A stretch of 32,660 nt of DNA, taken from IMG/VR virus record IMGVR_UViG_2534682158_000021; one strand, given 5' to 3'. The notes below the pieces were generated by a model. The model did not search any database. It was not told the origin of the DNA and was given only the letters and a program-made list of their open reading frames with translations. Origin of the DNA: a virus (lineage: Duplodnaviria > Heunggongvirae > Uroviricota > Caudoviricetes > Peduoviridae). A program made the translations under genes and the position numbers. Positions 8,812-11,617 of the stretch are shown piece after piece; position 1 is the stretch's first letter, and the number at the start of each line of letters is the position of its first letter.

Positions 8812-9780
8812 TCAGCCGTTGTCAGTGTCCAGTGAGTAGTTTTTAAAGCGGATGACCTCCTGGCCGAGCCAGCCGTTTATTTCCCGAATCCTGTCCTGTA
8901 ACGGGATTAGCTCATTGCGGACAAAGACCTTTGCCACTTTCTCAATATCGCCCAGTGACCCGACGTTCTCCGGCTTGCCACCCATCAACTGAAAGGGGAT
9001 GCGGTGTGCGTCCAGCAGGTCAGCGGCGCTGGCTTTTTTGATATTAAAAAAATCGTCCTTCGTCGCCACTTCACTGAGCGGGATAATTTTAATGCCGTCG
9101 GCTTTCCCCTGCGGGGCATAGAGAAACAGATTTTTAAAGTTATTGCGGCCTTTCGACTTCACCATGTTTTCGCGGAGCATTTCGATATCGTTGCGATCCT
9201 GCACGGCATCAGTGACGTACATGATGTATCCGGCATGAGCGCCGTTTTCGTAATACTTGCGGCGGAACAGTGTGGCTGATTCATTCAGCCAGGCAGAATT
9301 AAGGGCGCTGAGATATTCCGGCAGGCCGTACAGCTCCTGATTGATATCCGGCTCCAGCAGGTGAAACACGGAGCCGGGCGCGAAAGGTGTCGGCTCGTTG
9401 AAGGACGGCACCCACCAGTAAACATCCTCCTCAACACCACGGCGGGTATATTTTGCCGGTGAGGTTTCCAGTCTGATGACCTTACCGGTGGTGCTGTAGC
9501 GCTTTTCCAGAAACGCATTACCGAACACCAGAAAATCCAGCACAAAGCGGCTGAAATCCTGCTGGGAAAGCCACGGGTGCGGAATAAACGTTGAAGCCAG
9601 AATATTACGTTTGACGTAAATCGGTGAGCTGTGATGTACGGCAGCACGCAGGCTTTTTGCCAGACCGGAAAAGCTGACCGGTGGCTCATACCATCTGCCG
9701 TTACTGATGCACTCGACGTAATCCAGAATGTCACGGCGGTCGAGTACCGGCACCGGCTCACCAAAGGTGAATGCCTCCAT
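8812..9780 (-). CDS. Q: Portal protein (gpQ); N-terminal 22 codons out of frame as sequenced
   Basis: 322-aa ORF from the internal Met (MEAFTFGEPVPVLDRRD...). The expected coupled start (ATG at 9845, MSKKKGK, overlapping the P stop) is in another frame; see findings. Confidence 0.85.
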   Translation of the reverse strand: MEAFTFGEPVPVLDRRDILDYVECISNGRWYEPPVSFSGLAKSLRAAVHHSSPIYVKRNILASTFIPHPWLSQQDFSRFVLDFLVFGNAFLEKRYSTTGKVIRLETSPAKYTRRGVEEDVYWWVPSFNEPTPFAPGSVFHLLEPDINQELYGLPEYLSALNSAWLNESATLFRRKYYENGAHAGYIMYVTDAVQDRNDIEMLRENMVKSKGRNNFKNLFLYAPQGKADGIKIIPLSEVATKDDFFNIKKASAADLLDAHRIPFQLMGGKPENVGSLGDIEKVAKVFVRNELIPLQDRIREINGWLGQEVIRFKNYSLDTDNG

Positions 9781-9844
9781 TTTCGGGGCGCTGGCGGTGA
9801 TTGTTTTTGCCGCAGGTCGCGGTGTTTTCCCTTTTTCTTGCTCA

Positions 9845-11617
9845 TCAGTAAAACTCCAGAATGGTGGATGTCAGCGGAGTGCTGATACCGGCGGTGAGTG
9901 GCTCATTTAACAGGGCGTGCATGGTTGCCCAGGCGAGGTCGGCGTGGCTGGCTTCCTCGCTGCGGCTGGCCTCATAGGTGGCACTGCGTCCGCTGCTGGT
10001 CATGGTCTTGCGGATAGCCATAAACGAGCTGGTGATGTCGGTGGCGCTGACGTCATATTCCAGACAGCCACGGCGGATAACGTCTTTTGCCTTGAGCACC
10101 ATTGCGGTTTTCATTTCCGGCGTGTAGCGGATATCGCGCGCGGCGGGATAGAACGAGCGCACGAGCTGGAACACGCCGACACCGAGGCCGGTGGCATCAA
10201 TACCGATGTATTCGACGTTATATTTTTCGGTGAGTTTGCGGATGGATTCAGCCTGAGTGGCAAAGTCCATGCCTTTCCACTGGTGACGCTCAAGTATTCT
10301 GAATTTGCCACCGGCCACCACCGGCGGTGCCAGCACCACGCATCCGGCGCTGTCGCCACGGTGTGACGGGTCGTAACCAATCCATACCGGGCGGGAACCG
10401 AACGGATTTGCGGCAAAGGGTGCATAGTCTTCCCATTCTTCCAGCGTGTCGACCATGCAGCGTTGCAGCTCCTCGAACGGGAACACCGACGCCTTGTCGT
10501 CAACAAATTCACACATGAACAGGTTTTTAAAATCGTCGGCGCTGTTTTCACGTTTGAGCTGCTCAATGTCGAACAGCGTGCAGCCGCCTTTCAGCGCGTC
10601 CTCAATGGTGACAATCTGCCGCCACTGGCCGTCCGCACAGAGAAGACCTCCGGCAAGGGCGTTATGACTGACGTCGATTTCCACGCGTTCGGCGGCGCTG
10701 GCGCGACCCCGGTTGAACAGTTCACCCGACCAGAACGGGTAGGCGTCGTGCGCCAGCGTGGACGGGGTGGAGAAATAGGTCGAGCGCAGGTGACTCTGTG
10801 AGGCCATACCTGATGCCACCTTACGCAGTACCTGAAAATTCGGGATCCAGAAAATCTCATCGACGTACAGGTCGCCGTTATGGCTCTGTGCGGTGTTGGA
10901 GTTGGTGCCGAGAAAAATCAGTTTTGCGCTGTTATTGCCCAGGACAATCGGGTCACCGGTCAGGTCAACGTCAACCAGCCGGGCAAAGGCGATGATGTAT
11001 TCGCGGAACACATACGCCTGCGTTTTACTGGCCGACAGAAAAATCTGGTTATGACCGGTTTTCAGGGCGCGCAGCAGCGCCTCGCGGGAAAAATAAAACG
11101 TTGCGCCAATCTGGCGGGATTTCAGGATATCGCGGATGCGGTGCTCAAGCCCGGCGCGATACCAGTGCAACTGATAGTCGAAAGACTGCTCAAAGAAAAT
11201 CTGCTCCAGCTTTTCGATGGCCTCGTCACTGAAAAAATTCTTTTTCGGTTTGCGCCGCCCGCCTTTGTTGCGGTTAGCGACGTTCGGATTAAGGTCTGCC
11301 TCGTTGCCGGTCTGGCTGTAGCGGTTGACCCGTGCCAGTCGTTCAATCTGGCGTCCGAGCAGGTCAATTTCCTTGAAGTCACCGCCGGTTTTCTGCGGTT
11401 TGATGATGAGCTGGGTCAGCCGCGCTTCCAGGCTCATTTCGACACGGCTGATGGGGGCAACACTGTCCCAGCCGTCGCGCTGTTTCCAGCTCTGCACCGT
11501 CGGGCGTTTCATCTGCAACATGGCGGCAATCTGCGGCACGGAAAATCCCTGCCAGTACAGCAGCGCCGCCTGACGACGCGGGTCGTGTAAAAGAGTGGTG
11601 TCTGTGGTGATGGCCAT
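9845..11617 (-). CDS. P: Terminase large subunit (ATPase, gpP)
   Basis: ORF runs to 11647 (600 aa); start at 11617 (MAITTDTTLL...) gives 590 aa, the P2 gpP size. Upstream of Q in the same leftward operon. Confidence 0.9.
   Translation of the reverse strand: MAITTDTTLLHDPRRQAALLYWQGFSVPQIAAMLQMKRPTVQSWKQRDGWDSVAPISRVEMSLEARLTQLIIKPQKTGGDFKEIDLLGRQIERLARVNRYSQTGNEADLNPNVANRNKGGRRKPKKNFFSDEAIEKLEQIFFEQSFDYQLHWYRAGLEHRIRDILKSRQIGATFYFSREALLRALKTGHNQIFLSASKTQAYVFREYIIAFARLVDVDLTGDPIVLGNNSAKLIFLGTNSNTAQSHNGDLYVDEIFWIPNFQVLRKVASGMASQSHLRSTYFSTPSTLAHDAYPFWSGELFNRGRASAAERVEIDVSHNALAGGLLCADGQWRQIVTIEDALKGGCTLFDIEQLKRENSADDFKNLFMCEFVDDKASVFPFEELQRCMVDTLEEWEDYAPFAANPFGSRPVWIGYDPSHRGDSAGCVVLAPPVVAGGKFRILERHQWKGMDFATQAESIRKLTEKYNVEYIGIDATGLGVGVFQLVRSFYPAARDIRYTPEMKTAMVLKAKDVIRRGCLEYDVSATDITSSFMAIRKTMTSSGRSATYEASRSEEASHADLAWATMHALLNEPLTAGISTPLTSTILEFY

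Follow-up and report, generated by a model that had tools for sequence, protein, structure and literature searches.

The portal protein of bacteriophage P2, gpQ, is a protein of 344 amino acids (aa) that begins MSKKKGKTPQPAAKTMTASGPKMEAFTFGEP, and its gene Q (P2 coordinates 187-1221) is joined to the terminase large subunit gene P (1221-2993) by an ATGA overlap. During maturation the 26 N-terminal residues of gpQ are removed (Q to Q*), presumably by gpO (bioRxiv 10.64898/2026.09.14.750843; PMC7552001). The portal gene analysed here belongs to a Peduoviridae prophage held as IMG/VR virus record IMGVR_UViG_2534682158_000021, a stretch of 32,660 nucleotides that is referred to in its entirety as the window. 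This gene shares with P2 Q the ATGA overlap, the first codons, a tQ-type hairpin after the stop and 98% protein identity, as well as the gene order cos-Q-P, divergent from O-N-M-L. It differs in that the window has one A fewer in the run at codons 4-5, so that the gene as written is split between two frames. The comparisons presented here indicate that this portal lesion is most likely a homopolymer undercall of the 454 sequencing platform.

Several described systems provide a frame of reference for such a split. In Escherichia coli, -1 frameshifting of the dnaX/IS911/IS3 type takes place on X_XXA_AAG heptamers, and the portal start resembles these sites in carrying the in-frame lysine-codon heptamers G_AAA_AAG and G_GGA_AAA; unlike them, it is unconserved, is not followed by any predicted hairpin or pseudoknot and gives rise to no second functional product. 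The window also contains a true and conserved programmed -1 frameshift, in the P2 tail chaperone E/E+E' (26697-27120, plus strand), where the sequence GGTCGG-TTTTTT-G places a run of six Ts at 26945-26950. This site likewise involves a -1 frame change on a homopolymer and thus serves as an internal positive control, but it is annotated in P2 (position 19685), and E and its GpE-family extension are called in relatives, whereas the portal-start split is unconserved.

Sequencing and annotation offer further counterparts. Miscalls of homopolymer length are the characteristic error of 454 sequencing. The portal split shares with such miscalls a one-base undercount in a six-base run, an assembly made from 454 Titanium data only and the agreement of all other bases, and differs from them in being the sole such discrepancy in 32.7 kb. 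In addition, the Prokaryotic Genome Annotation Pipeline (PGAP) reports prophage portal and terminase pseudogenes as 'frameshifted' or 'incomplete', and the same allele with five As (A5, as opposed to the A6 of relatives) is found in two such cases, ETEC1748 and Z1322HEC0010. These copies belong to other prophage variants, whose flanks are separated from the closest other A5 copy by at least 13-14 differences per kb.

Results

As written in the record, Q does not form an unbroken open reading frame (ORF) of 344 codons from the ATG that overlaps the P stop, the frame being left after codon 4-5 (coordinates of all features in Table 1). The terminase gene upstream ends in ...ILEFY-TGA, and its product aligns with P2 gpP by tblastn at 99.7% identity over residues 1-590 with no gap. 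The frame opened by the ATG at 9845-9843 reads MSKKKGKHRDLRQ... and continues for 186 codons to 9285. A first-pass annotation of the same DNA had described a P stop overlapping this ATG, the peptide MSKKKGK and a 186-aa ORF behind it, all of which the sequence bears out; the 186-aa ORF itself is an artefact of the missing base and no gene.

The body of the portal gene lies in the -1 frame relative to ATG 9845. Its product scores 52.7 bits against PF04860 (cut-off 39.1) and is 97.9% identical to P2 gpQ over gpQ residues 3-343. Upstream of Met23 this frame stays open for 30 codons (*HPPFWSFTDEQEKGKTPRPAAKTITASAPK-M), of which 22 lie 3' of the position of the coupled ATG, and there is no ATG, GTG or TTG among these open codons. 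The earlier placement of the portal in the -1 frame, starting at 9780 with no alternative start upstream, is accordingly upheld, and so is the remark that ATG 9780 has no obvious Shine-Dalgarno sequence. Specifically, the anti-Shine-Dalgarno duplex energy is +0.1 kcal/mol at ATG 9780, compared with -5.9 at ATG 9845 and -2.2 to -13.4 kcal/mol at 22 other late-gene starts, which makes the Met23 codon, lacking a Shine-Dalgarno sequence, the weakest among the 24 starts compared. In its placement Q is of P2 type: it adjoins cos, has P immediately upstream and is followed after its stop by a terminator hairpin. The failure to read 344 codons from the overlap is most likely a fault in the record and not in the gene.

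Alignment with relatives locates the lesion. P2, SBF45, RM7190 and the other relatives compared read AAG-A6-GGG-A4-C, where the window reads AAG-A5-GGG-A4-C; the codons in the relatives are ATG AGC AAG AAA AAA GGG AAA ACA, which puts the missing base in codons 4-5. When one A is added back, the frame reads MSKKKGKTPRPAAKTITASAPKMEAF... and yields a normal 344-aa gpQ from the ATGA overlap. The first-pass annotation had listed first a single-base deletion in an A-run, caused either by mutation or by a sequencing error. One base is indeed missing, but the run concerned is AAGAAAAA(A)GGG and not the GGGAAAA that it had named. A deletion in the latter was rejected, as the alignment gives the GGGAAAAC run the same length in the window and in all relatives, where it is read GGG AAA ACA, and shows its 5' neighbour to be the shorter one. 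The proposed alignment with P2-like portal genes also speaks for a deletion, every close relative being one base longer and encoding a 344-aa portal from the ATGA overlap. Compared with the cdt-V prophage of RM7190, for instance, 21 kb could be aligned with 630 substitutions, and the portal-start A is the single indel; the other P2 homologues found in the window align at full length with no gap (A to residue 759/761).

The provenance of the record bears directly on the cause. The exact truncated portal of 322 aa occurs on one contig only, AFDR01000029.1 of GCA_000225045.2, which is 100% identical to the window, and the exact terminase protein P of the window is found on 11 contigs. AFDR00000000 is the assembly of the Shiga toxin-producing E. 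coli strain C165-02 (O73:H18), which was built with Celera from 454 Titanium FLX paired-end libraries only (PMC3491183). Two independent assemblies, NEMH01000011.1 and ABSLOE010000051.1, were compared with the window base by base. Their prophages come from other isolates and do not represent resequenced C165-02. The NEMH01000011.1 alignments cover window positions 1-21617 and 10484-32660, that is, all of 1-32660, and the ABSLOE010000051.1 alignment covers 3457-21617 (18,161 bases). Neither alignment contains a mismatch, and each has one gap only, at 9836, where a further T makes the coding strand A6; the portal encoded by both prophages has 344 aa and overlaps P through ATGA. The window and the NEMH prophage agree in the length of all homopolymers of at least 6 bases in the window, the affected run excepted. 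The lesion thereby combines a length change in a run of at least 5 bases, a platform prone to homopolymer-length errors and a full-length run in independent sequences.

These data are best explained by a model in which gene Q would be a normal P2-type gene of 344 codons, translationally coupled to P via the ATGA overlap, and in which the record would have lost one A of the six-A run in codons 4-5 (AAG AAA AAA GGG). The start and the first few codons would then appear in one frame and the rest of Q in another. The missing base would be absent from the record only, as a homopolymer undercall in a 454-only draft that leaves the bacterial DNA unaffected; the real prophage would make ordinary gpQ, and no biology would be left to explain.

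Alternatively, C165-02 may have undergone a real and very recent slipped-strand loss of one A, an explanation that the same comparisons render unlikely. Under such a deletion, the portal body would be cut off from its coupled start and no infectious particles would form, leaving a cdt-V prophage that is portal-deficient or strongly hypomorphic, in an early stage of prophage decay or domestication. Homopolymers are naturally prone to indels, the prophage has no other lesion, as would fit a very recent event, and a severe phenotype would be expected given a Met23 codon with no Shine-Dalgarno sequence. Yet the deletion would have to be private to one isolate, as the otherwise identical prophages in at least 2 other assemblies are A6, and this isolate was sequenced solely on the platform that has exactly such a signature error. 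With 0 substitutions in 32.6 kb, moreover, a true indel would be expected much less than a residual 454 error.

The distribution of the A5 form provides a further test of these explanations. It occurs in 0/75 GenBank phage records, all of which fall in the 95-99% identity band, with the best rows one gap away from the A5 query. The first-pass annotation had named intact phages with the same sequence and a portal starting at the internal Met as the observation that would speak against a frameshift, and none is present among these 75 records. IMG/VR holds A5 in 3 contigs and A6 in more than 120. Among about 1,550 complete E. coli genomes (1547 records with a match at the portal start), exact full-length matches number 6 for A5 (the top identity band contains 10 records) and exact matches 1,402 for A6, and the species-representative genomes contain 0 A5 copies and 3 matches, all A6. 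Because the nearest neighbour of each A5 copy is an A6 sequence, in two cases only 1 mismatch away over 1,021 flanking positions, the A5 form arose several times independently. In the A5 copies of ETEC1748 and Z1322HEC0010, PGAP calls a portal pseudogene 'missing N-terminus'; in that of MLI104K2, the portal is restarted at an internal ATG.

As a control, the equivalent A6-to-A5 deletion was sought at three other A6 runs, in the essential late genes N and P (Table 1). The portal start as a preferred target, be it as a phase-variation-like switch or through selection for grounded prophages, was rejected, since there is no enrichment over these runs. Two complete genomes, MLI104K2 (NZ_CP116925.1) and CE0032f (NZ_CP118997.1), were observed to carry both the portal-start A5 and the terminase A6-to-A5 deletion in a P2-like prophage. 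In these 'complete' genomes homopolymers seem to have been undercalled systematically, and the co-occurrence points to assembly quality, rather than to selection or biology at the portal start. For a real deletion in C165-02, the distribution therefore cuts both ways: the A5 allele is found sporadically in other assemblies, where it is recorded as a PGAP pseudogene with a missing N-terminus, but it is no more frequent than equivalent deletions elsewhere, and these co-occur in the same assemblies.

The sequence around the lesion contains two slippery heptamers. The first-pass annotation had pointed out G_GGA_AAA at 9831-9825, which is present and in the frame it gave, and had not mentioned a second in-frame heptamer, G_AAA_AAG (9837-9831). 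Because a -1 slip at either heptamer regenerates the exact wild-type protein, the site resembles a recoding signal. The idea of a programmed, selected -1 frameshift, or of a native portal start at Met23 with a separate small ORF upstream, either of them normal for this phage group, nevertheless has a negligible probability. Canonical heptamers of the X_XXY_YYZ type at the frame junction are all that speaks for programming, whereas the split is absent from P2, from 75/75 phage records, from more than 99% of the E. coli prophage copies and from the otherwise identical prophages. Moreover, the A5 carriers have no common origin, the zero-frame 186-aa product belongs to no Pfam family and is missing from A6 relatives, and in relatives the annotation and the conservation of the portal extend back to the ATGA start.

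There is also no stimulatory RNA structure predicted 3' of the heptamers, where folding is no better than that of shuffled sequences (z-scores 0.34, 0.44 and -0.83). The sole Shine-Dalgarno-like element is the GGAG 16 nucleotides (nt) 5' of the first heptamer, which serves as the ribosome-binding site of Q and may lie outside the -1 stimulatory range. Programmed -1 frameshifting was thus rejected, given that the split is unconserved, that no structure follows the heptamers and that unstimulated motifs barely shift (PMC4066793). This agrees with the first-pass annotation, which had ranked it as the least likely explanation. A native Met23 start was rejected as well: the portal begins at the ATGA overlap in P2 and all relatives, and the Met23 codon is not preceded by a Shine-Dalgarno sequence. 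Transcriptional slippage was set aside, the five-A run being far below the runs of about nine bases that are known to cause it. As a separate observation, codon 10 of the restored gpQ (window position 9815, minus strand) is CGA (Arg) in this lineage, compared with CAA (Gln) in P2 and SBF45. The CGA codon adds one G-U pair to a tiny hairpin, CCGCG-ACC-UGCGG, whose folding stability is not significant, and this lengthening is probably coincidental.

A remaining scenario is a deletion that is real but leaky, in which a -1 slip on G_AAA_AAG or G_GGA_AAA would produce MSKKKGKTPRPAAK... (wild-type gpQ), or translation would start at Met23, with a reduced supply of Q* as the result. Both heptamers are in the correct frame, with each slip restoring the wild-type sequence, and in E. 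coli lysyl-tRNA is described as highly shifty, A_AA.G being the most slip-prone tetramer (PMC4066793). The maturation of the portal would be permissive as well: gpQ is cleaved in the process (PMC7552001), and the mature P2 portal has been modelled from residue 27, as the N-terminally cleaved Q* (bioRxiv 10.64898/2026.09.14.750843). With residues 1-26 removed in this way, a product of Met23 initiation or of a -1 slip could mature to a normal portal. This scenario is still extremely unlikely, as it requires a real deletion first. In addition, unstimulated motifs rise barely above a background of ~0.05-0.15% in E. coli, with a ratio of motif to background of at most ~10 (PMC4066793), no stable downstream structure is predicted, as the z-scores given above indicate, and the Shine-Dalgarno sequence of Met23 is the weakest of 24 starts. 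That the deletion is real in C165-02 and a functional portal is still made, via -1 slippage or a Shine-Dalgarno-independent start at Met23, is accordingly considered very unlikely.

Table 1 Features of the portal region, the A6 control runs and the neighbouring cargo genes, in window coordinates
Feature	Position	Strand	Remarks
Terminase large subunit gene P	9845-11617	-	590 aa; TGA stop at 9847-9845
GGAG Shine-Dalgarno sequence	9854-9857	-	8 nt 5' of the Q start ATG; read from the sequence
Authentic start codon of portal gene Q	9843-9845	-	shares the A of the P stop (ATGA); same overlap in P2, RM7190 and SBF45
G_AAA_AAG heptamer	9831-9837	-	ATG-9845 frame; -1 slip restores wild-type gpQ; present only in the rare A5 form
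A5 run, A6 in relatives	9832-9836	-	site of the missing base, from alignments with relatives
G_GGA_AAA heptamer	9825-9831	-	ATG-9845 frame; -1 slip restores wild-type gpQ
Out-of-frame ORF after the Q start	9285-9845	-	186 aa; no Pfam family; nonexistent when the run is A6
ATG of Met23 of gpQ	9778-9780	-	earliest start codon here in the portal frame
Body of portal gene Q as written	8812-9780	-	322 aa, gpQ residues 23-344; PF04860
tQ-type terminator hairpin	8786-8811	-	GCCGCCTGCGGGCGGC then T6, directly after the Q stop; P2 tQ annotated at the same position
cos 19-mer	8624-8642	+	GGCGAGGCGGGGAAAGCAC; exact copy of the P2 cohesive end, flanked by the portal gene and by the AT-rich stretch 5' of cdtA
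cdt operon, complete	5891-8033	-	
cdtA	7257-8033	-	
cdtB	6451-7260	-	
cdtC	5891-6436	-	
Portal-start A run			A5 copies in 6/1547 records with a match
Control A6 run, gene P	11232		A5 copies in 4/1128 records with a match
Control A6 run, gene N	12900		A5 copies in 0/1442 records with a match
Control A6 run, gene N	13716		A5 copies in 3/1357 records with a match

The window as a whole comprises a complete P2-like prophage, from the integrase (1-1014, a 337-aa ORF that is annotated shorter on AFDR01000029.1) to the late genes through D and ogr, followed by the host gene fieF (31740-32660). The prophage is inserted between cpxP and fieF, as in RM7190. Identity to the P2 counterparts is only 43-51% for its integrase, repressor C and Cox, which therefore constitute a different integration and immunity module. 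Because an exact 19-nt copy of cos is present, the prophage retains an intact packaging site. The cdt operon, which encodes a cytolethal distending toxin, is of type V according to the annotation of the same genes in the near-identical RM7190 prophage, and it occupies the cos-proximal cargo position in which P2 has old and tin. A prophage covering cdtABC plus Q-P-O-N is found in 25 complete E. coli genomes.

Two further loci distinguish the prophage from P2. Between the tail-fibre assembly gene G and the sheath gene FI, in the variable slot that fun(Z) occupies in P2, lies an ORF of 197 aa (23996-24589, plus strand) that has no match in Pfam or PADLOC; an identical ORF is called in NEMH01000011.1. 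The tail fibre protein H (20484-23243, plus strand) has 919 aa, compared with 669 aa in P2, contains a gp37_C domain and is encoded as the exact same protein on 11 contigs. Its similarity to P2 H is confined to the first ~204 residues and, weakly, to the C-terminus, and judged by its sequence it is a putatively swapped receptor-binding part.

Discussion

The portal lesion of this prophage is the loss of a single base at a defined position. It is absent from otherwise identical prophages, it is rare, it has arisen repeatedly and independently, and it stands in a record made on the 454 platform. We infer that the platform, rather than a strain-private mutation, is its cause. A 454-only assembly, combined with otherwise identical prophages that are A6, makes a sequencing artefact the likelier cause. 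Several points weigh against this conclusion. A real deletion private to C165-02 or to its laboratory stock may also account for the record. The 454 consensus is correct at every other homopolymer of at least 6 bases in the window, so that the assembly is not grossly error-prone, and true slipped-strand deletions likewise favour homopolymers, such that position alone does not discriminate between the causes.

The explanations carry different consequences. If the deletion were real, portal synthesis would be lost or strongly reduced because Met23 has no ribosome-binding site, and the lesion would represent an ordinary event of early pseudogenisation. If a rescue were true in addition, an indel in an essential gene of a phage would have been rescued at the level of translation. 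With a 454 undercall as the favoured cause, the split at the portal start is most likely an ordinary finding and no real feature. It thereby calls for caution against annotating as recoding what only looks like a frameshift at a textbook slippery heptamer.

The sequence type 69 (ST69) stx2d/cdt-V lineage, with which a haemolytic uraemic syndrome outbreak has recently been connected (PMC13094856), takes its name from C165-02, its reference and oldest member. The mobility of the cdt-V phage of this strain is therefore of some practical interest. Taken together, the portal gene of C165-02 is almost certainly intact, as it is in the otherwise identical prophages, and the cdt-V prophage should not be scored as defective from the AFDR record alone.

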